Shown piece after piece: positions 7,116 to 62,823 of a stretch of DNA of 64,000 nt. The stretch's first letter is position 1, and every line of letters begins with the position of its first letter. The notes under the pieces are model-generated. The model saw nothing but the letters and a program-made list of their open reading frames with translations, did not search any database and had not been told where the DNA came from. The position numbers and the translations under genes are program-made. This stretch comes from an uncultured bacterium (lineage in GTDB: Bacteria; Patescibacteriota; Minisyncoccia; Phycocordibacterales; UBA9973), in assembly GCA_903869825.1 (NCBI GenBank), contig CAIQAL010000001.1, positions 7,185 through 71,184 on the forward strand, read 5' to 3'.

Positions 7116-7207
7116 ATAGACAGGTCCACATCTTAGCTAGATATGGACATTTTTCTTAAAGTTGCAGTATTTCGGAAATGGAGTTTGACGGAGCATAACC
7201 GTTCTGT

Positions 7208-9216: not shown

Positions 9217-9221
9217 TTTTT

Positions 9222-10903: not shown

Positions 10904-10912
10904 TGGTATAAT
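10904..10912 (+). promoter_or_regulatory. extended -10 element (TGgTATAAT) 7 nt upstream of the ATG at 10920; candidate leaderless transcript
   Basis: TGGTATAAT at 10904-10912, ATG at 10920, no SD between them. Confidence 0.3.
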
Positions 10913-10919
10913 AAAGAGA

Positions 10920-17811: not shown

Positions 17812-18192
17812 ATGAAAAAGAGATTAATTGTTTTGTCGAGTGTGTTGTCTTTAGTACCATTTTTGGCACTAGCCCAAAATGCCGGACTTTGTACCTACCA
17901 AACCGGGATCCAAGCGGTTATTTGTAAAATTGGAGAAATTTTAAATACGATAATTCCAATTTTGATTGTTTTGGGTGTTGTTTACTTCGTATGGGGAGTC
18001 ATCACCTATATGATTGGAGCAGACGAAGAAGCAAAAAAGAAAGGACGAGATAAGATTATTTACGGAATCATTGGTCTTGTTGTAATCGTTGGGATGTGGG
18101 GATTGGTAAAGATTGTTACTAGTACTTTTCAATTGAATAACTCAACTGGAGGGATTGTAACTCCTTGTGTTCCAGGAACTCCAGGCTGTTAA
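17812..18192 (+). CDS. VirB2/TrbC-like pilin-family small membrane protein, paralog P4
   Basis: Signal peptide (FLALAQN), CTYQTGIQAVIC Cys pair, LIVLGVVYFVWGVITYMIGADEEAKKKGRDKIIYGIIGLVVIVGMWGLV. Strong SD GGAAGGAAAG upstream. Confidence 0.5.
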   Translation: MKKRLIVLSSVLSLVPFLALAQNAGLCTYQTGIQAVICKIGEILNTIIPILIVLGVVYFVWGVITYMIGADEEAKKKGRDKIIYGIIGLVVIVGMWGLVKIVTSTFQLNNSTGGIVTPCVPGTPGC

Positions 18193-19441: not shown

Positions 19442-19442
19442 G

Positions 19443-19524
19443 TGCTGGAGGAGGGACTCGAACCCTCAAGCCTTGCGGCACTAGTTCCTAAGACTAGCGC
19501 GTATACCAATTCCGCCACTCCAGC
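19443..19524 (-). tRNA. tRNA-Leu (anticodon TAG), type II, long variable arm
   Basis: Reverse complement GCTGGAG-TG-GCGGAATTGGTATACGC-...-CTAGT-CTTAGGA-ACTAG-long arm-GGGTTCGAGTCCC-CTCCAGC-A. Acceptor 7 bp; anticodon loop CTTAGGA; CCA not encoded. Confidence 0.8.
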
Positions 19525-19562
19525 AAACATAATTTTATATAAATGTTTTAATTAAACATTTG

Positions 19563-19635
19563 TCCGCCCTGAAGGGATCGAACCTTCGACCTTATCCTTA
19601 AGAGGGATCTGCTCTACCAGCTGAGCTAAGGGCGG
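19563..19635 (-). tRNA. tRNA-Lys (anticodon CTT)
   Basis: Reverse complement CCGCCCT-TA-GCTCAGCTGGTAGAGC-A-GATCC-CTCTTAA-GGATA-AGGTC-GAAGGTTCGATCCCTTC-AGGGCGG-A. Anticodon loop CTCTTAA. Confidence 0.7.
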
Positions 19636-19681
19636 ATAATTAACTTTAACATGAAAATGAAAACAAATCTTATTAAGTTGT

Positions 19682-19763
19682 GTGCCCGGAGTGGGAGTCG
19701 AACCCACATCCCTTGCGAGACACGATTTTAAGTCGTGCGCGTATACCAATTCCGCCATCCGGG
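19682..19763 (-). tRNA. tRNA-Leu (anticodon TAA), type II
   Basis: Reverse complement GCCCGGA-TG-GCGGAATTGGTATACGC-...CACGA-CTTAAAA-TCGTG-long arm-GGGTTCGACTCCC-TCCGGGC-A. Confidence 0.8.
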
Positions 19764-19781
19764 CATTCTTGATTTGGACGG

Positions 19782-19853
19782 GAGGCCTGGGCCGGAATTG
19801 AACCGGCGTATATTCCTTTTGCAGAGGAATGCCTTACCACTTGGCTACCAGGC
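19782..19853 (-). tRNA. tRNA-Cys (anticodon GCA)
   Basis: Reverse complement GGCCTGG-TA-GCCAAGTGGTAAGGC-A-TTCCT-CTGCAAA-AGGAA-...-GCCGGTTCAATTCCGGC-CCAGGCC-T. Confidence 0.75.
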
Positions 19854-19911
19854 CTGAAAAATTTCAAATTTATCTTACTTAACTCCCAAGCTTCAAAAAA
19901 CCTTTTTAATC

Positions 19912-24760: not shown

Positions 24761-27460
24761 ATGCCACCATTAAATAAATTTACAACCAAAGCAAAGGATG
24801 CCATTAAAAAAGCCCATGAGCTTGCCATTGAGCGTGGGCAAAATCACGTTTCGGCACAGCATTTATTATCGGCGCTACTTTTACAAGATGAAAGTATGGT
24901 TAATTCTATTTTAGATAAACTCGAAGTGGACACTGTGCTTTTGACAGATTCCGTTTTAGAAGCTATTGAAACTCCAGAATCTCGTAGTACCATTTCTCCG
25001 TCATACCAGATTTATTTGAATGCTGATTTTGCTCAAGCAATTGAGCACTCTGTCAAATTGGCTGAATACTTGAAAGATGAATTTGTTTCGACTGAGCACT
25101 TATTCTTAGCTGTTTTAGAGGTTCCGGGAGAGGCAAGTGAAATTTTAGCTCGGCACCGAATATCAAAAGATATAGTGATAAAAGTTTTAGAAGAATTACG
25201 TAGCCAAAATATAAATGAAATAAGTGAGCCAAAAAAATTCAAACTGATTTTGAAATATACGAGGAATCTTACAAAACTTGCGAAAGAAGACAAGCTTGAC
25301 CCAGTGATTGGTCGCGATAATGAAATCACCAGAATAATGCAAATACTTTCTCGTCGCACTAAAAATAATCCGATTTTAATTGGAGAGGCAGGAACGGGGA
25401 AAACTGCAGTAGTAGAAGGATTAGCTCAACGCATTGCCAAAAATAATATACCAGAATCTCTGAAGGACAAAGAGCTTGTTTCACTTGACCTTGGAATGTT
25501 GATTGCGGGTACGAAATACCGGGGAGAGTTTGAAGAAAGACTAAAAGGAATAATGAAAGAAATAGAAAAAGCCGATAGCAAAGTAATTATGTTTATTGAT
25601 GAGATTCATACTATTGTCGGAGCCGGTGGAGGAGAAGGGACAATGGATGCTTCCAATATGTTGAAGCCGGCTCTTTCTCGAGGAGAACTTCGAGCGATCG
25701 GAGCAACTACTTTAAAAGAGTACCAAAAATATATTGAAAAAGATCCAGCCCTGGCTCGAAGATTCCAACCAGTTTATATTGATGAACCTTCGACAGAAGA
25801 CGCAATTACAATTTTGCGGGGATTAAAAGAAAAATATGAACTTTTCCATGGAGTCAGAATTACTGATGATGCAATAGTTTCTGCGGTAAATTTATCCACT
25901 CGTTATATCACAAACAGATTTTTGCCCGACAAGGCGGTTGATTTAATTGACGAAGCTTCTTCATCGCTCAAGATAATGTTGGAAAACAAACCTCCAATTT
26001 TGGAAGATGCGCACCGAAAAATTATGCGTTTGGAAATAGAAAAAGAAGCATTGAAAAAAGAAGTAGAAAACGAAGGAGGAAAAAAAATAAAAACGAGAAT
26101 TAAAGATATCGACAAAGAGATAGGAAACTTACAAGAACAAACAAAAGAGCTAGAACTAAAGTGGCAAAACGAAAAAGGAATCGTTATAGAAATTCGTGCT
26201 ATAAAAAAAGAACTTGAAACATTTCGAATCGATGCTGAAAATGCTGAAATGCACGCTGATCTTTCTAAGGCAGCGGAGATTCGTTACGGAAAAATTCCGA
26301 CTTTGAAAAAAGAACTCGATCTAAAATTAACGCGTTTAAAAAAATTACAGAAATCGAGAAGGATATTGAAAGAAGAAATTACGGCCGAAGATATTGCGGA
26401 AGTGGTGGCACGCTGGACAGGTATTCCACTTTCGAAAATGCTGGAAGAAGAGAGAGCAAAACTTGAAAAAATGGAAGTCGGATTAAATAAAAGAGTGGTG
26501 GGTCAAAATCTGGCGATTGGAAGGGTGGCAGACGTGATTAGACGTTCCCGAGCGGGGATTTCAGACCCTAATCGACCAATCGGTTCCTTTATTTTTTTGG
26601 GTCCTTCCGGAGTTGGTAAAACTGAACTTACGAAAGCCCTTGCCCAGTTTATGTTTAATGACGACCGAGCTTTAATTCGGGTTGATATGTCGGAATATAT
26701 GGAAAAGCATTCTGTCTCAAAATTGATTGGTTCACCTCCTGGCTATGTTGGCTACGAAGAAGCTGGTCAATTGACTGAGGCTGTCCGACACCGACCATAT
26801 TCAGTAGTACTTTTTGATGAAATCGAAAAGGCACATCCGGAAGTATTTAATATGCTGCTTCAAGTAGTTGACGAAGGAAGATTAACAGATGGAAAAGGAA
26901 GAGTAGTGAACTTTAAAAACACTATCATAATTTTAACCTCAAATTTAGGTTCACAATTTGTCGAGAAAATGGAATCAATTGGATTCTCAAATAATTCTGA
27001 AAAACAAGATTACGGCAATATGAAAGAAAAAGTGTTGGAAGCATTGAAAGATAGTTTCCGTCCGGAGTTCTTAAATCGTCTTGATGAAATAATTGTTTTT
27101 GATGTTCTTTCAAAAGAAGCAATAATGGAGATCGTTAGTCTTAGAATTCAAGTTGTCAGAGAAAGACTTAAGGCCAAAGGAATAGGACTTAAAATTTCTG
27201 AAGAAGCTTTGGCATATTTAGGCAAGGAGGGATACAATCCCCACTATGGAGCACGGCCAATTAACCGTCTAATTCAGAGTAAAATTTTGAATCAGGTTGC
27301 TTCTTACATTATTTCAAACGGAGTAAAGAAAGGAGATACAGTGTCGGTTACCGTAAAAGCGGGAGAGCTCTTAATAGAAAAAGATAAGAGTTTGCCCCCT
27401 GGTAAAAGTAAAATCAATAGCTCGTTCGGCGTTCATTCAAATTCACCTAAAAAAGCGTAA
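24761..27460 (+). CDS. clpB: ATP-dependent chaperone ClpB
   Basis: Two AAA+ modules ([15 protein letters not shown]; [15 protein letters not shown]) separated by a long coiled-coil M-domain; 899 aa. Confidence 0.9.
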
Positions 27461-27507
27461 CGAAAAATTAAAGACCTTCTTGTAAAAACAAGGAGACCTT
27501 TTCGGTG

Positions 27508-27590
27508 TGCGTCGGGTAGGATTCGAACCTACGTAGCCCGAAGGCGACAGATTTACAGTCTGTTGTAATTGACCACTCTACCACCGACGC
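27508..27590 (-). tRNA. tRNA-Tyr (anticodon GTA), type II
   Basis: Reverse complement GCGTCGG-TG-GTAGAGTGGTCAATTAC-...CAGA-CTGTAAA-TCTG-long arm GCCTTCGGGCTAC-GTAGGTTCGAATCCTAC-CCGACGC-A. Confidence 0.75.
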
Positions 27591-30330: not shown

Positions 30331-32116
30331 ATGGAAATTCTAAACGAGATTTGTCAAAATTGTAAAGAAGATTTTTTGATTGATTATGAAGACTTAAGTT
30401 TTTACGAAAAAATGAAAGTCCCTCCGCCGACGTTTTGTTGGCTTTGTCGGGCACAAAGACGAATGGCATGGCGCAACGAGAGTAGTCTCTTTAAAAGAAA
30501 AAGTGATTATTCCGGAAAAGAGATTTTTTCTGCGTTTTCTCCGGAATCACCAGTAAAAGTATATGAAAAAGATGTTTGGCTTTCCGATGTTTGGGAACCA
30601 ATAGATTACGGCAGAGAATATGATTTTTCAAAGTCTTTTTTTGAACAATTCAAGGAGTTACTTCGCACTGTACCACTAAAAAATTTAAACGTTATTCGTG
30701 GAGTGAACAGTGATTATTGCAACAACATAACAAATCCAAAAAATTCTTATTTATGTTTCAACGGAAAGGATGCGGAAGATTGTATGTATTCAAATGGACT
30801 GGCATACTTAAAAGACTGTGTAGATAGTTCTAACTGCGCCAAAAGCGAACGATGCTATGAATCTTTTTGGTTGAATTCTTGTACAGACACAGTTTTTTCT
30901 TCTCAGTGTCAAAATTCTTTTAAGTTATCTTTTTGTCGAGACTGCGCCAATTGTAATGATTGTTTTGGCTGCGTAGGGCTGAGAGGGAAAAGTTATTGTG
31001 TTTTTAATGAACCTTATAACAAAGAAAATTATTTTAAAAAAATTAATGAATACGATGTTTCCTCATATGTTGGCTTGCAGAATCTTTTAAAATTAAGGGC
31101 AGAGTTTTGGAAAAAATTTCCTAGAAAATTTATCGAGGGGTATCAAAATACAAATGTAGCAGGGAATTATATTGATAATTCCAGAAATGTGCGAAATTCA
31201 TATTTGATACGGGAGGGAGAAAATTTACGGTATTGCCAATATGTTCAAGAATTACCTGGAAGTAAGGATTGTTATGACTACACTGCCTGGGGGGACTCCA
31301 ACGAACTAGTGTATGAGTGCTCAGCTTGTGGTAACGGTACAAATTCAATTAAGTTTTGCTACAATGTTCAAGAAAACTCCTATAACGTAGAATATTCCTA
31401 TATGTGCACGGGTTCTTCATATTTATTTATTTGGTTGTGTTGGTTTAAAGAAAAAACAGTATTGTATTTTTAATAAACAGTATCCAAAAGAAGAATATGA
31501 AGTAATTGTTGAAAAAATTAAAAAACAAATGAACGAAATACCTTACTTGGATAAGAAAGGAAGAATATATAAATACGGAGAATTTTTTCCTATTGAACTT
31601 TCACCTTTTGCCTATAATGAAACATTAGCTCAAGAGTTTTTTGTTAAATCAGTTAAAGAAGCCAAAGAAGATGGATATTCTTGGACAAATGATGCTGACA
31701 AAAATTATGTTCCTACTAAAAGAACAAACGATTTACCGAACAGAATAGAAGAGGTTTCTGATGAAATTGTTAATGAGATTGTTGAATGTGAACATCAAGG
31801 CAAGTGTAATGACCGCTGTGCGACAGCTTTCAGAATTACTGAAAAAGAGCTCCAGTTTTATAGAAGGATGAAAATTCCTCTACCAAGACTTTGTCCCAAT
31901 TGCCGTCATTTTAAACGTTTGGAACAACGAACATTGTTGCAGACAGTGCATAAGAATTGTCAGTGTGCCGGCAATAATTCAGATGGTGGAATTTACAACA
32001 ACACAGTTGAACATCCTCATGGTGACAAACCTTGCTCTAATGAATTTGAAACAAATTATACTAGTGACACCGATATTATCTATTGTGAGAATTGCTACAA
32101 GAAAGAAGTGTATTAG
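30331..32116 (+). CDS. Cys-rich double zinc-ribbon paralog family protein, copy B (reading frame interrupted at an (ATTT)3 tract ~31418-31433)
   Basis: ORFs 30331..31473 and 31529..32116 are one gene. The downstream frame ...IYLFGCVGLKKKQYCIFNKQYPKEEYEVIVEKIKKQMNEIPYLDKKG... continues the paralog alignment; removing one ATTT unit restores a ~595-aa protein. Confidence 0.6.
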
Positions 32117-46220: not shown

Positions 46221-47932
46221 ATGGAAAATAGGATATGCCAAAACTGTCAGAAAGATTTCACAATCGAATCGGAGGATTTTTCATTTTACGAAAAAATTAA
46301 AGTCCCTTTACCAACCTTTTGCCCGGATTGTCGAACTCAAAGACGTTTTACCTGGAGAAATGAAAGAAATTTATATCGCAATAAGTGTGCAGCCACCGGA
46401 GCAAATGTAATCTCAGGTTTTTCCGTCGATTCTGGTATGACAATCTATGAAAGAGAATACTGGTGGAGCGACAAATGGGATCCAATGTCTTTTGGAGTGG
46501 ACTATGATTTTTCAAAACCTTTTTTCCTACAGTTTCAAAGTTTTATGAAAAGCACTCCGATGCCTTCCTCATTCAATGCCCGTACAATAAATAGCGAGTA
46601 TTTCAGCATACCGGAGATTTTAAGAATGCTTATCTGGTACACGCTTCCTGGGGTGGGGAGAATGTTTCTTATGCCGCACGAGTAAGCGAAGTAAAAGATT
46701 CTATGGATTCATTGGTTCTTTCTAACTCGGAACTTTGTTACGAAGTGATTGCCAGTAACAAATGCTACAACGTGACCCATTCCCAAAATCTTGAAGGTTG
46801 CAATAATTCTTCATTTTTATTTGAGTGTCGTGGATGTTCTGATTGTTTTGGTTGCGTTAACTTGCGCAACCAGAGTTACCATATTTTTAACGAACCATAC
46901 AGTCGGGAAAAATATTTAGAAAAAGTAAATGAATTTAACATTGGGAGTTATAAAAATTTTAAAGAAATCGAAAAGAACTTCAAGGATCTTAAGCAGAAAG
47001 CGATTCAAAAATACGCAAACATTGTAAATTCTCCCAACTGTACCGGAGATAATATCGTAAATTCATATAACTCTAAAAATTGTTTTGATCTTTATGGAGA
47101 GGTCAGGGATTGTAAGTTTATCCAAAATTGCGCCAAGTTCTTGAAAGACAGTTATGACGGATATGGAGTCGGCTCTTCGGCTGATCTTACCTATGAAGTT
47201 TTTGATACCGGGGTGCAAGGTTCTAGACTTTGTTTCGGGGCGGTTGTCTATGGTGGTCATGATGTCTATTATTCTTACAATTGTCACGGGAGTCAAAATT
47301 GTTTTGCTTGTGTAGGACTTCGCTCAAAATCTTACTGCATTTTTAATAAACAATACACCAAAGATGAGTATGAATCACTTGTTCCAAAGATAATAAAACA
47401 TATGAATGAAATGTCGTATGTTGATGCAAAGGGGAGAACATACAAATATGGAGAATTTTTCCCAAGTGACTTGAGTCCTTTTGCCTACAATGAAACTATC
47501 GCCCAAGAATATTTTTCATTAACCAAAGAAGAAGTTTTGAAACAAGGTTATAAATGGAGAGAAAAAGATGGAAGAAGCTACCAGATGGATATTAAAAATG
47601 AAAATATTCCAGATGATATTAAGGAAGTAGGTGAATCAATAATCGGGAAGGTTATAGAGTGTGAACACAAGGGTACCTGTAACGAACAATGTACTGAGGC
47701 CTTCAAACTTATCCCAGATAAATTACAATTTTACAAAAGGATGAATTTACCTTTACCTCGCATCTGCCCCAATTGTCGTCACTATGAAAGACTAGGAAAA
47801 AGAAATCCAATGAAGCTTTGGCTCAGAAAATGCATGAAGGAAGGTTGTCAAAACGAATTTGAAACGAGCTATGCTCCCTACCGATCGGAAACCGTTTATT
47901 GTGAAAGATGTTACCAACAAGAAGTCTACTAG
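46221..47932 (+). CDS. Cys-rich double zinc-ribbon paralog family protein, copy C (frame interrupted at a T-run ~46606-46612)
   Basis: ORFs 46221..46685 and 46703..47932 are one gene. In the -1 frame, NSEYF is followed by QHTGDFKNAYLVHASWGGENVSYAARVSEVKDSMDSLVLSNSELCYEV, which aligns to copy D. One extra T in the tatttc run restores the frame. Confidence 0.6.
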
Positions 47933-52163: not shown

Positions 52164-52775
52164 ATGAAAGATGAAGAAAAAGAAAAAAAAGAGGAAAATA
52201 AGGATGAAATGACGCCGAAGGAAGATGCTTCTGAGGTTTTAGAGTTTGAATTTAATGATGACGGAGAAGAAGATCTTAAAAAAACCATAAAAAAGCTTCG
52301 AGCAGAATTAAAGAAAATTAAAGCCGAAAAAGACGAATATTTAACCGGCTGGCAGAAAGAACGAGCGGATTTTGTGAACTACAAGAAACAAGACGAAGAC
52401 AGAAAGTTGAATTTCTCCGAATCAATCCGGGAAAGAATTCTAACCAGGTTTTTGAGTGTGGCGGACAGCTTCAATATGGCCTTTGCAAATAAAGAAGCTT
52501 GGGAAAAAGTTGATGAAAATTGGCGCAAAGGGGTGGAATATATCTATGGTCAGATGAATACTATATTTGAAGAATATGGAGTAAAATCAATCGGGGAAGC
52601 GGGAGAAAGTTTTGATCACAACATCCATCATTCGATAGAAATGATTCCGACTGATAAAAAAGAAGACGATCATAAAATTGCTGAGGTTATTCAAAGAGGA
52701 TACAAACTTGGTGACCGCGTAATTCGAGCTGCCCGAGTGAATGTTTTTGAGTACCATGACAAGCCCACAGAATAA
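52164..52775 (+). CDS. grpE: nucleotide exchange factor GrpE
   Basis: Acidic N-terminus, coiled coil (LRAELKKIKAEKDEYLTGWQKERADFVNYKK), C-terminal IQRGYKLGDRVIRAARVNV. Confidence 0.85.
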   Translation: MKDEEKEKKEENKDEMTPKEDASEVLEFEFNDDGEEDLKKTIKKLRAELKKIKAEKDEYLTGWQKERADFVNYKKQDEDRKLNFSESIRERILTRFLSVADSFNMAFANKEAWEKVDENWRKGVEYIYGQMNTIFEEYGVKSIGEAGESFDHNIHHSIEMIPTDKKEDDHKIAEVIQRGYKLGDRVIRAARVNVFEYHDKPTE

Positions 52776-54480
52776 AACCTGTCAGAATTGCAAGTGTGAC
52801 TTCATAATCGAATCTGAAGATTTTAATTTTTACGAGAAGATAAAGGTTCCACCACCGACTTGGTGTCCGGAATGTCGAATGATAAGACGTATGTCCTTTC
52901 GTGATTACAGGGTACTTTATAAAAGGAAAAGTGATAAAACGGGGAAAATAATTTTTTCTATTTTTCCACAAGAATCTCCTTTTAAAGTTTGGGAACGTGA
53001 TATTTGGTGGTCGGATGAATTGAATGCTCTTGATTACGGGAAAAACGTAGATTTTAATAAAAATTTCTTTATTCAACTAAAAGAACTTTTTTTTGATGTT
53101 CCTTCATCGGGGCAAACTTGTTGGAATATGGTCAATAGTGAGTATTGCACTGGTGCTAATAGTTTAAAAAATTGTTACCTGGTATTTGTATCCACGTTTT
53201 CAGAAGATTCCATGTATTGTGCAGAAATAAATAGAACAAAGAATTCTATTGACGTTACAAGAATCGAGTCGTCGGAATTGTGCTATCAATCTTTTGCTCT
53301 CATAAAGTGTTATCAAGCTTTCTTTTCTTCTCATTGTGAAAACTGCATGGATATCTGGTTTTCCAGAAACTTAGTTGGTTGTAATTATTGTTTTGGTTGT
53401 ACAAATTTAAGAAACAAGCAATACTGCGTTTTTAATAAACAATACACAAAAGAAAATTATATCAAATATGTAGATGATCTTGACCTAAGCTCTTACAAAT
53501 CAATGAAAGCGGTAAAAGAAAAGGCAGAAAAAGTAGTGGAAAAAAGTATCAGAAAATTCATGGAAGGACGATACAATTCTAATGTTTCCGGTGAGTACAT
53601 CAATAACTCAAAAAATACTTTTAATAGCTATTACGTTATTCAAGGAGAAGACAGTAAGTATGTTCAATCTTTTTTCACTCCTGGTTTTAAAGACTGCTAT
53701 GATTGTACGATGTGGGGACAAAATTCCGAATTATGCTATGAATGTTCTTCTGTCGGAGAAAATTGTTATAACAATAAATTTAATTATCGTTGCAGTAGAG
53801 GTTCGCATGATTGTGAGTATTCCTATAGTTGCTATGGAAGTTCAAATATTTTTGGTTGTTCTGGACTTATTAATAAACAATATTGCATTTTAAATAAACA
53901 GTACACAAAGGAAGAATATTCCAGACTAAGAGAAAAAGTAATCAAACACATGAATGATGTCCCATACTTAGACAAAAAGGGGACAATGTATACGTACGGA
54001 GAATTCTTCCCCTTAGAATTGTCTCCTTTTTCTTACAATGAATCAATGGCCCAGGATTATTTTCCCCTAGAAAAAAAACAAGCCGTTAACCTAGGTTTTA
54101 GGTGGAAGGATAAAGAAGAAAGGAATTACAAGATAGATATCAAAAATGAAAATATTCCTGATAGTAATAAAGACATTACGGAAGATATCTTAAACAAGGC
54201 GATTGAATGTGAAAACAAAAACAAAAACGTCGAATATTGTACTGAAGCGTTTAAAATTATTAAATCAGAGTTGCAGTTTTATAAAAAATTTAATTTACCA
54301 TTACCAAGATTATGCCCAAACTGTAGGCATTTTGATCGTTTAAAAATGAGGAATTCTTTGAAACTTTGGAACCGCAAATGTATGAAAGAAGGTTGTCAGA
54401 ATGAATTTGAAACCAGCTACGCTCCCGAATGTCCTGAAATCGTTTACTGTGAACGTTGTTATCAACAAGAAGTATACTAA
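52756..54480 (+). CDS. Cys-rich double zinc-ribbon paralog family protein, copy D
   Basis: Intact, ~575 aa. Start at ATG 52756 (MTSPQNKTCQNCKCDF...) overlaps the grpE stop by 20 nt in another frame; the ORF track's alternative start is 52741. Full architecture described in the findings. Confidence 0.65.
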   Translation: MTSPQNKTCQNCKCDFIIESEDFNFYEKIKVPPPTWCPECRMIRRMSFRDYRVLYKRKSDKTGKIIFSIFPQESPFKVWERDIWWSDELNALDYGKNVDFNKNFFIQLKELFFDVPSSGQTCWNMVNSEYCTGANSLKNCYLVFVSTFSEDSMYCAEINRTKNSIDVTRIESSELCYQSFALIKCYQAFFSSHCENCMDIWFSRNLVGCNYCFGCTNLRNKQYCVFNKQYTKENYIKYVDDLDLSSYKSMKAVKEKAEKVVEKSIRKFMEGRYNSNVSGEYINNSKNTFNSYYVIQGEDSKYVQSFFTPGFKDCYDCTMWGQNSELCYECSSVGENCYNNKFNYRCSRGSHDCEYSYSCYGSSNIFGCSGLINKQYCILNKQYTKEEYSRLREKVIKHMNDVPYLDKKGTMYTYGEFFPLELSPFSYNESMAQDYFPLEKKQAVNLGFRWKDKEERNYKIDIKNENIPDSNKDITEDILNKAIECENKNKNVEYCTEAFKIIKSELQFYKKFNLPLPRLCPNCRHFDRLKMRNSLKLWNRKCMKEGCQNEFETSYAPECPEIVYCERCYQQEVY

Positions 54481-54481
54481 T

Positions 54482-56137
54482 ATGAAACCAGAAACAAGAA
54501 CATGCGAACATTGTGGTAAGGAATTCTCTATTTCAGAAGAAGAATTAAATATGTATAAGAAGATAGATATTGAATTACCGACTATTTGCTTTTTTTGCCG
54601 AGTAAAAATTCACTTGTCTTTTTGGATGTTCGGAAAATTTCGAAAAGGAAAATCTGATCTTTCTGGGGAAAGCTTAATAACAGTTTTGCCTAATAAAAAT
54701 CGTTATCCAATCTATACTCTAACGGAATGGTGGAGCGATAAATGGGATGCAATGGATTTTGGACAAGATTACGATCAACAAAGAACTTTTTTTTCTCAGC
54801 TAAAGGAATTGCAAGAAAAAGTCCCGCATCCACATCAAAACGGTAGTAAAAATACAGGATGTGATTGGTGTGACGATGTTTGGAATTCTAAAAATTGTTA
54901 TTTAGCTCGCTCGATGGTTGATTGTGAAGATTTATATTATTCTTACAGAAACTTAAATGTTAAAAATTCTATAGATGTGACTGTTTGCTATAACTCTGAA
55001 AAGCTATTTGATTCGTTAAATTGCCTTCATTCTTTTAAAATTTTTTATTCAAGAAACTCAAGAGACTGTGTAGAATCGTATTTTTTATTTGATTGTCGTA
55101 ATTGTCAAAATTGTTTCATGTGCTGGAACTTGAGAGGTAAATCATTTTGTATAGAAAATATCCAATATACTAGGGATGATTATTTTGAAAAATTAAAATC
55201 ATTTAACTTAGGGTCATATAAGTCAATTCAAAATTTCAAAATAAGATTTGAGGAAATAGCACGTACCGAAGTTGTGCATAGAGAAAATTTTAACCTTAAA
55301 ATTCATAATTCTGACGGAGATCAATTAATTAACTGTAAGAATTGTCATAACTCGTTTACTATAAGCGATTCAGAAGATAGTTATAATTGCATAAGAGGAA
55401 AGAATGAAAAGTCTAACATTGACGCCAATGGCACATGGGATTCTGAATTAATAGGTAATTGTAGTTCTTGTTTTGGTGGTTATATGCAAAAATATTGTGC
55501 TTGGTCAACTTCTCGATTTTCAGAATACTTGGATTTATGTTTAGAATGCGAAAATTGTTTTGGTTGTGTCGGACTTAAAAAGAAAAAATATTGTATTTTA
55601 AATAAGCAATATGAAAAAGAAGAATATGAAAAACTTATGTTGGAAATTATTACTAATATGAAAAAAAGGGGAGAGTATGGAAAGTTTTTACCTTTTCTAA
55701 TGTCTGCAGGGCCATTTAATTTCTCTACAAGCTTTCTGTATTTTCCAGAAACGAAAAAAGAAGATATTTTAAAGCTTGGAGGTTATTGGGAGGATGTTGA
55801 TGAAAGTCATATCGAAGGAATGCTGACTAGTGAATTACCTGATAGCATAAAAGATGTTCCTGATAATATTATTACCGAAGCCTTAATTTGTCCACAAACT
55901 GGTTGGCGTTTCAATATTGCACAGAACGAACTAAATTTTTACCGGCAAAATAATATTCCGCTGCCTAGACGACATTTTGATGTTAGAATTAAAGACAATA
56001 TAAAATATTCGACAGTGTTGCAATCTTATCATTACAAATGTTTTTATTGTAAAATAGATATCGATGGCTATTATCCGCCGGAGTGGGAATATAAAAAAAT
56101 TGCTTGTGAAGAGTGTTACAAGCAAAATATTAACTAA
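54482..56137 (+). CDS. Cys-rich double zinc-ribbon paralog family protein, copy E
   Basis: Starts 1 nt after copy D's stop (MKPETRTCEHCGKEFSISEEELNMYKKIDIELPTICFFCR...). The ORF-track start 54401 lies inside D and is rejected. ~551 aa. Confidence 0.65.
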   Translation: MKPETRTCEHCGKEFSISEEELNMYKKIDIELPTICFFCRVKIHLSFWMFGKFRKGKSDLSGESLITVLPNKNRYPIYTLTEWWSDKWDAMDFGQDYDQQRTFFSQLKELQEKVPHPHQNGSKNTGCDWCDDVWNSKNCYLARSMVDCEDLYYSYRNLNVKNSIDVTVCYNSEKLFDSLNCLHSFKIFYSRNSRDCVESYFLFDCRNCQNCFMCWNLRGKSFCIENIQYTRDDYFEKLKSFNLGSYKSIQNFKIRFEEIARTEVVHRENFNLKIHNSDGDQLINCKNCHNSFTISDSEDSYNCIRGKNEKSNIDANGTWDSELIGNCSSCFGGYMQKYCAWSTSRFSEYLDLCLECENCFGCVGLKKKKYCILNKQYEKEEYEKLMLEIITNMKKRGEYGKFLPFLMSAGPFNFSTSFLYFPETKKEDILKLGGYWEDVDESHIEGMLTSELPDSIKDVPDNIITEALICPQTGWRFNIAQNELNFYRQNNIPLPRRHFDVRIKDNIKYSTVLQSYHYKCFYCKIDIDGYYPPEWEYKKIACEECYKQNIN

Positions 56138-56138: not shown

Positions 56139-56672
56139 TTATTTTTTGAGAGCTTTAAGAAATTCCAGATTTGTTTCCGGATCAAGTTTTTCAGTAACAA
56201 TAATCATCAATTCCGAACAAAGGCCCAAATCTTTTTTAATATTCGTGAAAAGATATTCGTATGGATGAGGGGAGATCCAGACGGTATTTTTTATGCAAAC
56301 GAAATTCGCTTTCTTGAGTAAGTAGCGTAATGCTTCACGTTCGCTTTTTCTTTCTTCAGGAATATCTAAAATTATAATTCGCCAAAGTCCGTCCCAGGTA
56401 TTTGACACGAGTGCTTCTTCGCCTTCGAGACGAATGGAGTTTAATTTTCTTTGGCCTTTTTTGGTAATTTTCAGGTATTTTTGGTTGTCGGAACTGTGGA
56501 TTTCCACGCAACCTGATTCGATTAATTGCTTGATAGAGCGGGCGAGGGCATAGTTTTTCTTTTGGTCTTTCCCTTTTATTGCTTCAACAGAAATGGCAGG
56601 TTTTTCAGACAAAACTTTCAAAATAGCCTTTTGAATATTGGGTTTTTTGATGTTTTTTACTACTTTATCCAT
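56139..56672 (-). CDS. PaaX-family-like transcriptional regulator (N-terminal winged helix + PaaX_C-like domain), short form
   Basis: WDGLWRIIILDIPEERKSEREALRYLLKKANFVCIKNTVWISPHPYE matches the PaaX C-terminal signature (WDG.W...D.PE..R..R..L...GF..L.NSVW.SP). N-terminal wHTH IQKAILKVLSEKPAISVEAI. Its stop is 1 nt from copy E's stop on the other strand. Confidence 0.5.
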   Translation of the reverse strand: MDKVVKNIKKPNIQKAILKVLSEKPAISVEAIKGKDQKKNYALARSIKQLIESGCVEIHSSDNQKYLKITKKGQRKLNSIRLEGEEALVSNTWDGLWRIIILDIPEERKSEREALRYLLKKANFVCIKNTVWISPHPYEYLFTNIKKDLGLCSELMIIVTEKLDPETNLEFLKALKK

Positions 56673-56709
56673 AACACTTGCATTATACCAAAATCTGATT
56701 ATAATATCA

Positions 56710-56739
56710 ACAAGTATTTTGCGACCACGAAATACTTGT
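56710..56739. promoter_or_regulatory. perfect 10-bp inverted repeat ACAAGTATTT-N10-AAATACTTGT (operator candidate) in the regulator/dnaK divergent region
   Basis: Arms at 56710-56719 and 56730-56739. The right arm overlaps the putative dnaK -35 box. Confidence 0.45.
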
Positions 56740-56764
56740 CAAAATTATTAGATGGGTATATACT
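56736..56764 (+). promoter_or_regulatory. sigma70 promoter candidate for dnaK (TTGTCA-17-TATACT)
   Basis: TTGTCA at 56736-56741 and TATACT at 56759-56764; leader ~55 nt to the dnaK ATG. Confidence 0.4.
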
Positions 56765-56825
56765 TGAAAAGTAAAATAAATTATTAGCTTGCCCCGCCAA
56801 AAGCGTGGGATAATCGAAAAAAAAT

Positions 56826-58736
56826 ATGTCAAAAATTATTGGGATAGACTTAGGTACAACAAATTCAGCGGTAGCTATAATTGAAGGAGGCGTACCAAAA
56901 ATTATTGAAAACGTCGAAGGAAATCGCACGACTCCTTCGGTGGTAGCAACTGCTAAAAATGGCGATCGTATCGTGGGGTTACTTGCAAAAAGACAAGCAG
57001 TGACAAATCCAGAAAATACCATCGCGGAAATCAAGCGCTATATGGGGCACCGCTTTGATGATCCGGGAGTGCAAAAAGATAAAATTTCTGCTCCATTTAA
57101 AATTGAAGCTGAAGAAAACGGCGGAGTGAAAGTAAAAATGTCCGACAAATTTTATCGGCCGGAAGAAATTTCTGCCATGGTATTGCAGAAAATAAAAGCA
57201 GACGTCGAAGCAAAATTGGGAGAAAAAATTACCGAAGCGGTCATTACCGTGCCGGCATATTTTAATGATGCTCAAAGAAAGGCAACGAAAGATGCTGGTC
57301 TTATTGCTGGGCTTGATGTAAAGAGAATTATCAACGAACCGACGGCCGCAGCGCTTGCTTACGGATTCAATAAAAAGAAAAATGAAAAGATTGTGGTATA
57401 CGATTTCGGAGGTGGAACCTTTGATGTGTCTGTACTTGAGATCGGAGATGATGTAATAGAAGTAAAATCGACCGATGGAGACTCTCACATGGGCGGAGGT
57501 GATATTGATCGAAAAATAATTACTTGGATTGCGGAAGAATACAAAAAGGAATCTGGAGTGGACGTTAGAAAAGATCCACTTGCTCACCAACGTTTAAAGG
57601 AAGCGGCTGAAAAAGCAAAACACGAACTCTCTACCACAATGGAAACAGAAATCAATATTCCTTTTATCACTTCCGATGCATCAGGACCGAAACACTTACT
57701 CATGAAAATGTCTCGAGCCACCTTGGAATCTTTGGCCAAAGAATACATTGACCGCTCGATAGAGATAACCAAGCGTGCTTTAGAAGCTTCGCCGTTTAAA
57801 ATGGCGGAGATAGATGAGATTATTATGGTTGGCGGTCAAACTCGAATGCCAGCTATTGTAGAGGCGGTAAAAAACCTTTTCGGGAAAGCTCCAAATATGT
57901 CTATCAACCCGGATGAAGTCGTAGCTCTTGGAGCTGCAGTGCAGGCAGGAGTGTTGGCAGGAGACGTGCGAGATGTTTTACTGCTCGACGTCATTCCACT
58001 TTCCTTGGGAATTGAAACCTTGGGAGGCGTGGGAACAAAATTGATTGAAAGAAATACTACTATTCCGGCTTCAAAATCACAAGTGTTTTCAACTGCTGCC
58101 GACAATCAAACAAGCGTTGAGATTCATATTGTCCAAGGAGAACGTCCGATGGCCGCTGACAACAAATCACTCGGCCGGTTTATTTTGGATGGTGTTCCAC
58201 CATCTCCTCGAGGAATGCCTCAAATCGAAGTCACTTTTGATATTGATGCAAACGGAATCTTAAATGTGAAAGCGCAAGATAAAGCATCCGGGAAAGTGCA
58301 ATCAATCAAGATTGAAGCAAGTTCTGGATTAAAAGATGAGGATATTAAAAAAATGCAAGCGGATGCTGAAATTCACGCAGAAGAAGATAAAAAGAAAAGG
58401 GAATTAGTGGATGTGAAAAATACCGCTGAGATGATTATTTACACTGCGGAAAAAGCAGTGAAAGAGAATGATGCAAAAATTCCGGAAGATATCAAGAAAA
58501 CAGTAAATGAGAAAATCTCAGCTCTTCGTTCAGTAAAAGACAGTACGGATATGGAGGCTGTCAAAAAAGCGACCGAAGAACTTTCAGCTGAGATGTCTAA
58601 AATCGGCGAAGCTATGGCAAAAGCTGGAGCGACCGATACCAAAGACACAACCCCAGAAGAACAAAATCCAGAAGTGTACGATGCCGAATTCAAGGAAGAT
58701 AAAGACAAGCCTGGAAGCGAAGCTCCTAAACAATAA
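56826..58736 (+). CDS. dnaK: molecular chaperone DnaK (Hsp70)
   Basis: [34 protein letters not shown]; 636 aa. Confidence 0.95.
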
Positions 58737-58749
58737 AATTTGTTTTCAA

Positions 58750-58778
58750 AAAGACCCAACATGGGGCTTTTTGTTTTT
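58750..58778 (+). terminator. terminator candidate after dnaK (imperfect stem + T-rich run)
   Basis: AAGACCCAACATGGGGCTTTTTGTTTTT. Confidence 0.35.
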
Positions 58779-58787
58779 CACCTTTGT

Positions 58788-58796
58788 GATATAATT
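58788..58796 (+). promoter_or_regulatory. extended -10 (TGaTATAAT) 7 nt upstream of the ATPase-1 ATG; candidate leaderless transcript
   Basis: TGTGATATAAT at 58786-58796; ATG at 58803. Confidence 0.35.
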
Positions 58797-58802
58797 TATC
58801 TA

Positions 58803-61037
58803 ATGGAAATGCCGAAAATACCTATGAATAAGGATATGACCTATATTGGTTTGACCACTTATCGTGATAAAAACCAGCTTTTTGGGATTAAACGAAAAGA
58901 CCGTCGTCAGCATGTATATTTACTAGGGAAGTCTGGTACCGGTAAATCCGTCCTGATGTTCAATATGATTATCCAGAACATCAAGAATGGCGATGGAGTT
59001 TGTGTAGTTGACCCGCACGGAGAACTCGTGGAAGGAGTTCTTTCTGCTATTCCACCACACCGAATGAAAGATGTTGTTTACTTTAATCCAGCCGATCCGG
59101 ACTATCACATTGGTTTTAATGTGCTTGAACTTATTGACCCGAAATACAAACACCTTATCGCTTCGGGCCTCATGGGAATTTTTACCAAAATTTGGGCGAA
59201 TGCTTGGAGTGCTCGAATGGAATACATTTTGAACAATGCTATTTTGGCTTTGCTTGATACTCCGGGGACGACGATGCTTGGAATCCCGAGAATGCTGGTG
59301 GACAAAGATTATCGCCAGAAAATAATTTCAAATTTAAAAGACCCGGTCATTAAAGCTTTTTGGATTCATGAATATGAAGAATGGCAAGACAAATTTCGAA
59401 ACGAAGCGATTGCTCCTATTCAAAATAAAGTCGGGCAATTTCTTTCGACCCCGATTATCAGAAATGTCGTTGGCCAAGCGGAAAGCACAATAAATATTTT
59501 TGACATAATGAACGAAGGAAAGATTTTCTTAGTGAACGTTTCAAAAGGACGTATCGGAGAAGATAACTCATCGCTTTTGGGAGGAATGATTATTACCAAA
59601 ATTCAGTTGGCTGCAATGGAACGGGTTCGAATTCCGGAAGAGGAACGAAGAGATTTTTATTTGTATGTTGACGAATTTCAAAATTTTGTTACCGATTCTT
59701 TTGCCGGGATATTGTCGGAAGCTAGAAAATACCGCTTAAACTTAACGGTGGCGCACCAGTACACTGCCCAGCTTGTTTCGGACAAAAGTTCCAGTGTTAG
59801 AGATGCTGTTTTCGGAAACGTTGGAACAATGATTGTTTTTCGAGTAGGTTCGGATGACGCAGACTTTTTGGAAAAGGAATTTGATCCAGAATTTACTCCC
59901 CAAGATATTGTAAACTTACCAAACTACAAAATTTATCTTAAATTAATGATTGATGGAGTCACTTCTAGACCATTCTCAGCTAAAACTTTGCCACCAATGG
60001 CGCACGGAGATCCGAAAGTGGAAGAAGAAGTAATAAAAAGTTCTCGTGAACTTTATTGTAAGACAAGAGAAATAGTAGAACGGGAAATAAATAATTGGAG
60101 TGGAATGTCGCTCGGCAATGAGAATGATACTGGAGGGGTTGAAAAGTTTCCTGCGGTTTGTTCAATTTGCAAAAAAGAAACTTTTGTCCCATTTAAACCT
60201 GAACCAGGCAGACCTGTTTACTGTAAGGATTGTATTGCAAAATTAAAATCAGGTGAATTAAAACCAGTCAAGGGTTCGATTAACCAGATCAAATATGATG
60301 AAGGTAAATTCTATAAACCACTGTCGGATCTAGGAATTGAATTTGAACAAAAAACTCCATCAGTGGCGCAAGCAAAAACAATGGAAGGAGATAGATATCC
60401 TGAGAGAACAGACAGAATAGGGCATGTGGATAATAATCAGACAAATGCTCGACCCGGAATTTTCTCCGCAATTAAAAAAGTATTTAATAAAAATGCTATG
60501 CCTGTCGGATTACAACCAAAGGGTAATTTAAATACGCAGCCGGTTAGAAATAATTTTATGAAAAATAAGCCAAAGGCAGTTCATTCAGCTAATGGCAATA
60601 TTGCCTTGAAGGAAATATTGAATAAAACCTTAAATGAAGCTTTGGCCGAAAAAAAACAAGTTCCAGAAATCAAGCCTGAACAGATTGTTAAAGAAAACCC
60701 AAATATTCCAAAACCAATTTCCTTAAATGAACTTAAAACTCAAACACCTGAAGTAACTTTTGTCCCGAAAGATAAATCAGCCAAACCGGAAGATATGAAT
60801 AGATTGAAGAATTTTATAATAGGAAAAAATTTAGAACATAAAGAAGAAGTTGTTCAGACTTCACCTTCCGTCGAACCTATTCCAGTATCAACTTCAACAT
60901 CAATGCCGATACCGGAACCAATTCCTGAACCAATTCCATCTCCGATTCCTCTTGCATTATCACCTGAACAAACACCGGAACCAAAAACTTCAACTAAGGA
61001 AGTGCCTGAAGATGTTCTCAGAAAAATGCTAGAGTAA
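58803..61037 (+). CDS. TraG/TraD/VirD4-type (type IV coupling-protein-like, AAA_10/TraG-D_C) ATPase with C-terminal CxxC...CxxC zinc ribbon and Pro-rich low-complexity tail (ATPase-1)
   Basis: Walker A LLGKSGTGKS, VVDPHGEL, Walker B FYLYVDEFQNF, and RKYRLNLTVAHQY...NVGTMIVFRVG (TraG-D_C-like). No N-terminal TM. C-terminal ribbon CSICKKETFVPFKPEPGRPVYCKDC. Start at 58803, because the upstream part of ORF 58740 contains the dnaK terminator. Confidence 0.6.
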   Translation: MEMPKIPMNKDMTYIGLTTYRDKNQLFGIKRKDRRQHVYLLGKSGTGKSVLMFNMIIQNIKNGDGVCVVDPHGELVEGVLSAIPPHRMKDVVYFNPADPDYHIGFNVLELIDPKYKHLIASGLMGIFTKIWANAWSARMEYILNNAILALLDTPGTTMLGIPRMLVDKDYRQKIISNLKDPVIKAFWIHEYEEWQDKFRNEAIAPIQNKVGQFLSTPIIRNVVGQAESTINIFDIMNEGKIFLVNVSKGRIGEDNSSLLGGMIITKIQLAAMERVRIPEEERRDFYLYVDEFQNFVTDSFAGILSEARKYRLNLTVAHQYTAQLVSDKSSSVRDAVFGNVGTMIVFRVGSDDADFLEKEFDPEFTPQDIVNLPNYKIYLKLMIDGVTSRPFSAKTLPPMAHGDPKVEEEVIKSSRELYCKTREIVEREINNWSGMSLGNENDTGGVEKFPAVCSICKKETFVPFKPEPGRPVYCKDCIAKLKSGELKPVKGSINQIKYDEGKFYKPLSDLGIEFEQKTPSVAQAKTMEGDRYPERTDRIGHVDNNQTNARPGIFSAIKKVFNKNAMPVGLQPKGNLNTQPVRNNFMKNKPKAVHSANGNIALKEILNKTLNEALAEKKQVPEIKPEQIVKENPNIPKPISLNELKTQTPEVTFVPKDKSAKPEDMNRLKNFIIGKNLEHKEEVVQTSPSVEPIPVSTSTSMPIPEPIPEPIPSPIPLALSPEQTPEPKTSTKEVPEDVLRKMLE
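60895..60960 (+). repeat. low-complexity PIPEPIPEPIPSPIP coding repeat in the ATPase-1 tail
   Basis: ccgataccggaaccaattcctgaaccaattccatctccgattcct. Confidence 0.5.
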
Positions 61038-61056: not shown

Positions 61057-62823
61057 GTGTTCAAAAATTTTATGAATTCGGAAACTAAAACCCCCAATTT
61101 TGATAAATTGTTAGATGAAATTTTAGAAAAAATTGTGCCTCACGAAAGAGAATGTGCACAGAAAGATATCTCAAAATATTGTGAAAAAAAATTCAGAATT
61201 TATGATGAAGATATAAAATTTTATAAATTACTTCGGGTGCCACCCCCAAAGTGTTGTCCGACTTGCCGGCGGCAGAGACGGAATGCCTTTACCAACAGAA
61301 TATATTTATATAAAAGAAAAGATGATGCTCCCGGGAATTCAAAGGAAGTAATATCTTTTGTTCCTCCTGTCTCGCCATTTGTTGTTTATAATTTGGATTA
61401 TTATAGAAGTTCCAAATGGGACCCAATTTCTTTTGCTGTTGACTATGATTTCTCAGTGCCATTTTTTGATCAATTTTTTGATTTACGATTGAAAGTGCCC
61501 CAGTATGCTATTGTACGGGACCCTTCAAGTATTAATAGCGAGTATTCTTTAAATGGGCGTAACTTAAAAAATGGTTATTTAGTGAGTGGTGGAACCGACT
61601 CAGAAAATCTCTGGTATAGTATTTTTATAAAAAATTCAAGGGAAGTTATGGACAGTCATAGTATAGACAAGTGCGAACAGTGCTCTGAAATGATTTTGAC
61701 CAAAAATATGAATCTATGCTTCTATTGTTATTTTTCTTTCAACTGTATCAGTTCTTATTTTTTACTTGATTGTCGTAATTGCCAAAATTGTTTTGGCTGT
61801 TCAAATTTGCGCAATAAAAAATATTGCTTTTTTAATAAACAACTTGGGAAAGTTGAGTACGAAGAAAAAATAAAATCTATGAGATTAGATTCTAGGTCTG
61901 GACTTAAAGATGCAAGAAAAAAATTTTGGGAATTCGTAAAGCAAAATCCAGTAAGAGCTTCTCGTTCCAGCCGGTCAGTAAATTCCAGTGGGTTGGCCAT
62001 TATCAATTCAAGGAATTGTCAGAATGTTATATCTTGTGAAAACGGAGAAAATGAAAGGTATGTCAATATGGTCACTAACCACAAAGACTCGATGGATGTG
62101 TACACTTCAGGTGATTCAGAACTTTTGTATGAAGTATCTTGGGTAGGAGCGGGCGCTTCAAATATTAAATTCTCATTTGGTTCAAAAAATGTTACTAATT
62201 GCGAATTTGTTATTAATTGTCATTATTGTGACAATTGTTTTGCTTGTATCGGACTTGAAAATAAAAAATATCATATTTTAAATCGCCCTTATGGTAGAGA
62301 CGAATATTTCAAAGAATTGGATAAAATTAAGTTATCTCTTTTAAAGAGCGGAGAGTATGGTGAGTTCCTACAGTGTCGATTTAGTACTTTTGCGTACAAT
62401 GGCTCTGAAGCAGATTTATATTTTCCACTTGATCAATACGAGACAAAAAAAATTGGGGCATACTATCAACCTGATAGTGGAATAGAAACACAAGGGATAA
62501 AAATTGCAGAAGCAAAAGATATCCCAGACAAAATAATTGATGTGGAAGATAATATTTTAGACGAAGCAATTACTTGCGAAAAAACCGGTCGCCTTTTTAA
62601 AATTATTAAAAGCGAACTTGATTTCTATAGAAGATATAAGCTACCCATTCCTACCTTTCACCCTTTGGAGCGAATGAAAAGCACTTATTGGTATTTGGTT
62701 GGAGATAATATCGTTTATAAAGATTTTTGTGATAAATGTGGAATTCCGATAGAAACAATCTATAATCCAAAAAATAATTGGAGACTTTATTGTGAAAGTT
62801 GTTATCAAAAAGAGGTATATTAA
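61057..62823 (+). CDS. Cys-rich double zinc-ribbon paralog family protein, copy F
   Basis: 588 aa, intact. CEKKFRIYDEDIKFYKLLRVPPPKCCPTCRRQRR ... CRNCQNCFGCSNLRNKKYCFFNKQ ... CEKTGRLFKIIKSELDFYRRYKLPIPTF ... YCESCYQKEVY. Confidence 0.65.
   Translation: MFKNFMNSETKTPNFDKLLDEILEKIVPHERECAQKDISKYCEKKFRIYDEDIKFYKLLRVPPPKCCPTCRRQRRNAFTNRIYLYKRKDDAPGNSKEVISFVPPVSPFVVYNLDYYRSSKWDPISFAVDYDFSVPFFDQFFDLRLKVPQYAIVRDPSSINSEYSLNGRNLKNGYLVSGGTDSENLWYSIFIKNSREVMDSHSIDKCEQCSEMILTKNMNLCFYCYFSFNCISSYFLLDCRNCQNCFGCSNLRNKKYCFFNKQLGKVEYEEKIKSMRLDSRSGLKDARKKFWEFVKQNPVRASRSSRSVNSSGLAIINSRNCQNVISCENGENERYVNMVTNHKDSMDVYTSGDSELLYEVSWVGAGASNIKFSFGSKNVTNCEFVINCHYCDNCFACIGLENKKYHILNRPYGRDEYFKELDKIKLSLLKSGEYGEFLQCRFSTFAYNGSEADLYFPLDQYETKKIGAYYQPDSGIETQGIKIAEAKDIPDKIIDVEDNILDEAITCEKTGRLFKIIKSELDFYRRYKLPIPTFHPLERMKSTYWYLVGDNIVYKDFCDKCGIPIETIYNPKNNWRLYCESCYQKEVY

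Follow-up and report, generated by a model that had tools for sequence, protein, structure and literature searches.

What is the function of an inverted repeat that lies between dnaK, the gene for the chaperone Hsp70, and a divergently transcribed regulator gene? This arrangement is found in a stretch of 64 kb of DNA from an uncultured bacterium of the Patescibacteriota (contig CAIQAL010000001.1), which is referred to here as the window. An earlier note, made from the sequence alone, had described the repeat and suggested that a non-HrcA operator-repressor pair may control dnaK. Our comparison of related sequences supports this suggestion: the element is conserved, the two genes diverge from it, the known operators CIRCE and HAIR are absent near dnaK, and the regulator is not HrcA. 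The repeat forms the arms of a 30-bp palindrome which, together with the regulator, here termed mini-PaaX, probably constitutes an autoregulated repressor-operator pair for dnaK. The locus is composed of the following features:

56710..56739, no strand: 30-bp palindromic operator-like element, ACAAGTATTT-TGCGACCACG-AAATACTTGT, read directly from the sequence
56720..56729, no strand: GC-rich core (the earlier 'spacer'), with the highest information content of the element
56139..56672, minus strand: open reading frame (ORF) of the regulator, 177 amino acids (aa), matching PF20803, with its ATG 38 nt to the left of the base at which the repeat begins
56826..58736, plus strand: dnaK (Hsp70), the gene under presumed control (PF00012, E 4e-243)

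A palindrome conserved between dnaK and its divergent neighbor

The perfect 10-bp inverted repeat is exactly where the earlier note had placed it, with the left arm ACAAGTATTT at 56710-56719, the right arm AAATACTTGT at 56730-56739 and a middle of 10 nt (tgcgaccacg) at 56720-56729. The divergent ORF of 177 aa, said to start 38 nt to the left, agrees as well. The palindrome extends imperfectly to arms of 19 nt (56701-56719 and 56730-56748) because both flanking -35 boxes mirror each other. Shuffling the 64 kb with the dinucleotide composition preserved yields 3.8 ± 2.6 perfect 10-bp inverted repeats whose spacer is at most 20 nt; the real window has 17 overlapping matches at 6 places, mostly terminator-like. 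Single arms with at most one mismatch are also at chance level (16 in the window, 10.2 expected). A 10-bp inverted repeat alone in an AT-rich window is within chance. Since the repeat alone is statistically unremarkable, its meaning had to be decided by the relatives.

We collected the relatives in two ways. In the protein-led sample, an alignment of the regulator was scanned against one genome per GTDB species, which returned 80 loci (L001-L080). In the DNA-led sample, metagenome contigs were scanned with the pattern ACAAGTNTTTNGYGRYCRCNAAA, which returned at least 120 stretches. Counts over both samples together include the DNA-led matches, so these totals are lower bounds.

The earlier note had itself named a lack of conservation of the repeat upstream of dnaK in relatives among the outcomes that would refute it, and the comparison came out in its favor. 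When scored with a position weight matrix (PWM), the element is present in 79 of the 80 species-representative loci, at 26-48 bits, and the 80th locus has no upstream DNA. Likewise, 77 of 78 species loci have an element with at least 22 of 30 matches in the intergenic region between regulator and dnaK. The regulators of the species-representative genomes with the element are 56-84% identical. Over both samples, a site of at least 26 bits is detectable in at least 186 loci of Paceibacterota/Nomurabacteria, with regulator identities of 39-88%. The regulator and/or dnaK lie directly beside the site in 106 of 120 cases among the DNA-pattern matches listed. Among the matches listed, both genes diverge from the site in all 159 loci with both gene starts, and in the same 159 the neighbors are dnaK and grpE. 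Within the 80 species loci, dnaK is the divergent upstream neighbor of the regulator wherever the contig is long enough. Each locus has one site, both in the species loci and among the DNA-led matches listed. The element of the window scores 47.1 bits. All these data point to conservation as the decisive evidence that the element is real.

Some of the matches were rejected. Of the 14 listed pattern matches with neither regulator nor dnaK, 13 appear to be chance occurrences: they are located in DNA with a GC content of 42-56%, usually within a coding sequence, or, in L099, in a HIP1 site of cyanobacteria. L127 has two sites because its contig contains the entire unit grpE-regulator-operator-dnaK in two mirror-image copies (3151-7131 and 8365-11091), a duplication that probably is an artifact of assembly.

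From the species-representative loci, we derived the family consensus ACAAGTATTT-YGYG-RY-CRCR-AAATACTTGT. The element carries approximately 1.4 bits per position and 42 bits over its 30 bp, as compared to approximately 0.1 bit per position in the flank on the dnaK side. Conservation is highest at G12, G14, C17, C19, C2 and G29 (2.9-3.0 bits each), and these positions, together with T9 and A22, are nearly invariant. The core occurs in either orientation among loci (GACC or GGTC). The intergenic DNA of these loci is AT-rich (approximately 26% G+C), which makes a GC-rich core anomalous there.

The distance from the site to codon 17 of the regulator has a median of 61 nt and falls between 40 and 140 nt in 165 of 179 loci. 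On the other side, anything from 26 to 1397 nt separates the site from the dnaK ATG, and in the loci where this distance is long, extra ORFs have joined the transcription unit on the dnaK side. Site and regulator occur strictly together and at a fixed spacing, which speaks for a cognate pair. Among the ORFs between operator and dnaK are one of 92 aa resembling DUF3467 (L001, 3067-3345, minus strand) and two unassigned ones (L032, 1837-2677, minus strand). An IS200-like Y1_Tnp ORF of 239 aa lies between site and regulator in L009 (2778-3497, plus strand), and the same is seen in approximately 5 metagenome loci.

One operator-like element among three predicted promoters

The element is surrounded by predicted promoters in both directions. 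To compare them, 75 species loci were anchored on the element and scanned for sigma-70-type hexamers, so that all assignments are consensus matches only. In the window, three promoters are predicted:

56678..56705, plus strand: P1, towards dnaK, with -35 TTGCAT (56678-56683), a 16-nt spacer and -10 TATAAT (56700-56705)
56736..56764, plus strand: P2, towards dnaK, with -35 TTGTCA (56736-56741) overlapping the right arm, a 17-nt spacer and -10 TATACT (56759-56764); 10/12 consensus
56682..56710, minus strand: regulator promoter, with -35 TTGATA (56710..56705), a 17-nt spacer and a TG-extended -10 TATAAT (56687..56682); 11/12 consensus

P2 is the promoter into dnaK that the earlier note had read across the right arm, and it recurs at the same offset, with its -10 box at element positions 50-55, in 35 of the 75 species loci. 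P1, just upstream of the element, had not been mentioned in that note. It is near-consensus and stronger than P2 across the species: its -10 box (TATACT or TATAAT) starts 9-13 nt ahead of the element in 68 of 75 loci, and approximately 62 of 75 have a perfect TTGACA at the equivalent of its -35 box. With the -10 box so spaced, the transcript is expected to begin at the element's left edge, and the element would therefore occupy positions +1 to +30, approximately. In the window, the predicted P1 start is at approximately 56712, inside the left arm. Where the element and the dnaK ATG are only 26 nt apart, P1 alone can be used.

The regulator promoter is the mirror image of P2. In the window, its -35 box abuts the left arm and overlaps the first base of it, and a regulator promoter with the -35 box over the left arm is found in approximately 35 of 75 species loci. 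This symmetry supports the earlier suggestion that the regulator may also control itself. From the spacing, with a -10 box that ends 9 nt before the ATG, the mRNA of the regulator is expected to be nearly leaderless.

Both locations, +1 to +30 and on top of a -35 box, are repressor positions. The conserved palindrome overlaps core promoter elements of the genes that it would regulate, as expected for a repressor-operator pair. We infer that mini-PaaX binds the site, represses, and is released under protein-folding stress. A dimer of mini-PaaX would bind the palindrome at 56710-56739 and occupy the compact divergent promoter region, where it would block RNA polymerase at P1, with the operator at approximately +1 to +30, at P2, with the -35 box in the right arm, and at the regulator's own promoter, with the -35 box at the left arm, which would result in autoregulation. 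Repression would be lifted under protein-folding stress, and chaperone titration or an intrinsic lability of the repressor are guesses, by analogy, at the signal for release.

The regulator is a two-domain relative of PaaX

The earlier note had assigned a winged helix and a PaaX_C-like motif to the regulator. The winged helix is present in the AlphaFold2 model; the quoted motif belongs to PaaX_M (PF20803), the central Cas2-like domain, which covers residues 91-169 (E 2.3e-19, 69.7 bits with a cut-off of 24). A Pfam search of the regulator returned no match to PaaX_C at E ≤ 0.01, and the protein ends at residue 177, just past PaaX_M. With the equivalog model of PaaX (TIGR02277), the regulator scores 26.7 bits, below the cut-off of 264.55. 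Homologs are numerous: we found 1763 in public data, 159-213 aa long and all from Patescibacteria where the source is named. The best 120 of these 1763 are all at least 63% identical to the regulator, and their named sources are Paceibacterota, Nomurabacteria or Patescibacteria.

The AlphaFold2 model (pLDDT 77) is composed of an N-terminal winged helix (helices 13-23 and 37-52, hairpin 56-69) followed by an alpha/beta domain. Its pTM of 0.49 indicates moderate confidence and leaves the orientation of the two domains uncertain. With Foldseek, the model matches PaaX of Escherichia coli W best (8A39; E 2.7e-5 and a TM of 0.55 on the query, over 178 aligned columns); Rv0674 (3KFW) and PaaX of Jannaschia (3L09) come next. 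The identity in fold alignments to PaaX is only 11-14%. A sequence search of the PDB returned only insignificant matches to MarR/HxlR winged helix-turn-helix (wHTH) proteins (E 0.06-0.7), and the relationship to PaaX is visible only at the level of fold and Pfam. The regulator is a mini-PaaX of two domains, a winged helix and a Cas2-like PaaX_M, that lacks PaaX_C. Within its helix 37-52, K38, Y41, R45 and K48 are invariant in an alignment of 35 sequences. We take this helix to be the putative recognition helix, and its invariance parallels that of the operator bases.

Candidate targets beyond dnaK

The earlier note had proposed that other copies of the repeat would define a regulon. We found no further site in the window, where the element at dnaK is the sole match of at least 8 bits, or in L001-L080 at 12 bits or more, and no further half-site of at least 20 bits in 1.49 Mb of sequence beyond the pattern-selected matches. 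Weaker copies are detectable upstream of clpB in one sublineage. Among the matches listed, one non-canonical match is plausible: in L149 (3400-3429), an element of 23.4 bits lies 85 nt upstream of clpB and has the architecture of P2, with the intact arm overlapping TTGTCA, followed by 17 nt and TATAAT. The four closest ClpB homologs that we fetched (L201-L204, 70-76% identical) have a related element of 11-23 bits in the same position over the -35 box, at approximately 797-826 in L201 and approximately 100-145 nt upstream of clpB in L202, L203 and L204. In these clpB copies, the intact arm overlaps a TTGTCA or TTGTAA -35 box. The element is therefore found in five of five clpB loci of this sublineage, at 11-23 bits, as compared to a best background score of approximately -7 to -12 bits per 4.7 kb. 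From these sequences, dnaK is the universal candidate target and clpB is a candidate target in one sublineage, where the regulon would also take it in.

In L207, the region upstream of groES-groEL contains a promoter, TTGCAA-17-TACAAT, as well as an inverted repeat that is imperfect and unrelated, and dnaK of the same genome has a canonical operator.

Alternative explanations

The palindrome might act mainly as RNA, as a 5'-terminal hairpin that P1 transcribes onto the dnaK mRNA and that stabilizes the messenger or senses temperature, with the regulator acting elsewhere. In favor of this, no promoter here is better conserved than P1, whose transcript is predicted to begin where the element does on the left. 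A transcript of the element folds as a hairpin of 12 bp (-12.3 kcal/mol, z = -6.8), and on the sense strand of dnaK, G:T mismatches are slightly more frequent than A:C mismatches (107 and 62, respectively), mostly at the two central positions and pair 13/18. However, it is the sequence that is conserved and not the pairing: C2:G29, T9:A22 and G14:C17 do not vary among the 65 unique sites, G12:C19 differs in a single one, both sides of a pair change only at pair 1/30 (4 sites), and the variable positions break the pairing (A:A, T:T) with no compensation. The most conserved bases would fall in the loop or next to it. Since its distance to the dnaK start codon is so variable, the element cannot mask the ribosome-binding site, and the copies at clpB, being located ahead of the -10 box there, would stay outside the transcript. 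In addition, Rfam returns no match in 56600-56900 even at E ≤ 1. Sequence-conserved pairs, a core in both orientations, an unfixed distance, untranscribed clpB copies and no Rfam match all favor a DNA site bound by protein, and a mainly RNA-based function appears quite improbable, although an accessory RNA role can coexist with a DNA operator. Even less credible, and in our opinion very improbable, is that the palindrome is a by-product of back-to-back promoters with mirror-image -35 boxes and has no dedicated factor. It is true that the outer arms overlap the mirror-image TTGTCA of P2 and TTGATA of the regulator promoter, and that promoter-like hexamers recur in both directions across species. 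Conservation is nevertheless highest at core positions 12-19, outside all -35 and -10 hexamers of P2 and of the regulator promoter, where promoters alone would leave an invariant spacer unexpected across species whose regulators have diverged to identities of 40-87% and a GC-rich core unexpected in DNA of this composition. Moreover, the loci that lack P2, with the dnaK ATG 26 nt from the element, still keep the whole of it.

Alternatively, the site may truly bind a protein, with another outcome or another partner: mini-PaaX may serve as an activator of P2 and of its own promoter from approximately -46, or the site may be recognized by a different DNA-binding protein. The center of the element is indeed approximately 46 bp upstream of the predicted start of P2 and, by mirror symmetry, of that of the regulator, a position that activators can also use. 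We regard this possibility as unlikely, given that P1 is near-consensus in most species (TTGACA-17-TATACT), reads through the site and needs no activator, that site and regulator co-occur strictly at a fixed spacing, and that the nearest relative by structure, PaaX, represses in competition with RNA polymerase (PMC9493321). An autoregulated repressor-operator pair is the reading that we prefer, and, besides the location near -46, several observations weigh against it. All starts of transcription are predicted only by matches to the consensus, and the -35 box of P1 is weak in this window (TTGCAT, 3/6 consensus). The regulator lacks the C-terminal domain of PaaX and any recognizable sensor, which leaves its switching unexplained. 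Operator variants and wHTH residues share at most 0.38 bits of mutual information, distributed among many positions; phylogeny confounds it, and it contains no clean signal of specificity. The regions upstream of clpB (24761-27460) and grpE in the window score -22 and -37 bits, respectively, with no site. The same is true of clpB in four loci of Nomurabacteria type (L205-L208), although two of these share contigs with canonical dnaK sites (L205 with L019, L207 with L055). Upstream of groES in L207 (3886-4095), there is neither this operator nor CIRCE, the best CIRCE match having 7 mismatches. With no site at clpB and grpE in the window and close relatives, or at groES in L207, the idea of a heat-shock regulon rests on dnaK and on clpB of one sublineage.

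Comparison with known repressors

In many bacteria, the dnaK and groESL operons are controlled by the heat-shock repressor HrcA through CIRCE, an operator with 9-bp arms and a non-conserved spacer of 9 nt. The locus described here resembles this system in its dedicated repressor, as predicted, in its palindromic operator over the dnaK promoter, and in a regulator gene located in the grpE-dnaK neighborhood. The differences are however substantial. The regulator is composed of a wHTH and PaaX_M, and Pfam and NCBIfam return only PaaX_M and weak wHTH matches, with no HrcA domain. It is encoded divergently from dnaK, whereas hrcA is the first gene of its operon, and no hrcA is recognizable by eye in the 64-kb window (relatives were read as flanks of at most 10 kb). 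The only match to CIRCE (TTAGCACTC-N9-GAGTGCTAA) with at most 3 mismatches in the window is inside gyrA (12906-12932), and none is near dnaK. The earlier note had likened the geometry of the repeat to that of CIRCE, with an unrelated sequence. The sequence is indeed unrelated, but the likeness in geometry is superficial because the presumed spacer is the conserved core: here the center is the most conserved part of the operator.

In Actinobacteria, Helicobacter and others, the MerR-type repressor HspR acts through HAIR on the dnaK operon and clpB. The HspR gene is the last one of the dnaK operon, and DnaK acts as corepressor; both HrcA and HspR respond to chaperone titration. The resemblance in this case consists of a repressor that is autoregulated, here by prediction, an inverted-repeat operator at the promoter, and dnaK and clpB as targets, the latter here in one sublineage. 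In contrast, the regulator of our locus has a PaaX-like fold with no MerR match in Pfam or NCBIfam and is divergently transcribed. The sole match to HAIR (CTTGAGT-N7-ACTCAAG) in the window, at 18164-18184, is at chance level, and none is near dnaK.

Repressors of the MarR type are likewise small dimeric wHTH proteins; from a palindrome between divergent genes, they control themselves and a neighbor, as predicted here. The weak sequence and fold matches of the regulator to MarR/HxlR are confined to the N-terminal domain. MarR dimerizes through a helical bundle, whereas the corresponding module here would be the Cas2-like alpha/beta domain. In the structural model, PaaX is instead the best match over the whole 177 residues, comprising the wHTH and the central Cas2-like domain. 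PaaX is the repressor of the paa genes and responds to phenylacetyl-CoA. It occludes RNA polymerase and autoregulates, and its operator is TGATTC-N27-GAATCA (PMC9493321). The regulator of our locus differs from it in length (177 aa, as compared to approximately 305 for PaaX and 280-310 for the family), in the absence of the C-terminal domain, and in a compact 30-bp palindrome of another sequence. It also has no paa genes nearby: none was recognizable when the ORFs of the window were inspected by eye rather than by a full scan for domains. In summary, the regulator agrees with the PaaX family in PaaX_M and overall fold and departs from it in C-terminal domain, equivalog score, gene context and operator.

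Gene neighborhood

In related loci, grpE is located downstream of the regulator, often preceded by large Cys-rich paralogs, and a TraD-like ATPase gene follows dnaK. The Cys-rich proteins (approximately 570-590 aa) form a family with at least 6 copies or fragments in the 64 kb, two of which seem to be split into adjacent ORFs. Most related loci have 1-3 copies between grpE and the regulator. The family has no Pfam or NCBIfam match except for a C-terminal treble-clef zinc finger (CxxC-x17-CxxC). Its copies and fragments in the window are located at:

52741-54480: Cys-rich family
54401-56137: Cys-rich family
61057-62823: Cys-rich family
100-588: Cys-rich family
30331-31473 and 31529-32116: Cys-rich family, adjacent ORFs
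46221-46685 and 46703-47932: Cys-rich family, adjacent ORFs

The gene after dnaK (58740-61037, with a likely ATG at 58803) encodes an ATPase that resembles TraD/VirD4/HerA and contains an internal zinc finger of the treble-clef type, and it has the same location in most related loci. The N-terminal part of this protein is 81-93% identical across species, equal to DnaK in conservation. Between the two genes (58737-58802), the dnaK stop codon is followed by a terminator-like hairpin, AAAAAGACCC-aacat-GGGGCTTTTT, then by GTTTTT and by an extended -10 box, TGaTATAAT, an arrangement that we read by eye and that the consensus scanner did not call. Because of this hairpin and the TG-extended -10 box, we rejected co-transcription of dnaK and the TraD-like gene in the window, where dnaK is probably monocistronic. 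In the lineage of L127, dnaJ directly follows dnaK; no dnaJ was recognized in the window, where ORFs were read by eye.

The 5' untranslated region of dnaK contains a GC-rich hairpin, CCCCGC-caaaa-GCGTGGG (56791-56809), approximately 17 nt before the ATG, with an unexceptional folding energy (z = -0.65). Several relatives have GC-rich hairpins of other sequence 11-23 nt before the dnaK ATG. There is no clear Shine-Dalgarno sequence ahead of dnaK. The window also harbors an ordinary cluster of four tRNA genes on the minus strand (19442-19855; Leu-tag, Lys-ctt, Leu-taa and Cys-gca), with tRNA-Tyr apart at 27507-27590, also on the minus strand.

Implications for gene regulation in Patescibacteria

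Almost nothing is known about transcriptional regulation in Patescibacteria (also known as CPR), a group with very few regulators and mostly without cultivated members. The mini-PaaX protein and its operator would play the role that HrcA and CIRCE, or HspR and HAIR, have elsewhere, by means of an unrelated protein and an unrelated site. A full-text search of the literature found no published description of such a system. We tentatively propose, as a possibility short of an even chance, that Paceibacteria control Hsp70 through an undescribed family of mini-PaaX repressors that stands in for HrcA/CIRCE. Its Cas2-like domain may serve both as dimerization module and as stress sensor, for example as a client of DnaK or as an intrinsically labile domain, and its regulon may comprise dnaK, the regulator itself and, in some lineages, clpB.

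A defined site, a candidate protein and a clear target, conserved in approximately 180 loci, make the pair testable in vitro or in a heterologous host, with no need for culture. The compact region, in which a single palindrome is surrounded by dnaK promoters in tandem and by a regulator promoter in mirror image, would also offer a natural example of one operator for three promoters. If the pair is confirmed, a new protein family would join the short list of bacterial repressors of chaperone genes (HrcA, HspR, CtsR and RheA), and the widespread proteins that have only PaaX_M would acquire their first predicted function outside aromatic catabolism.

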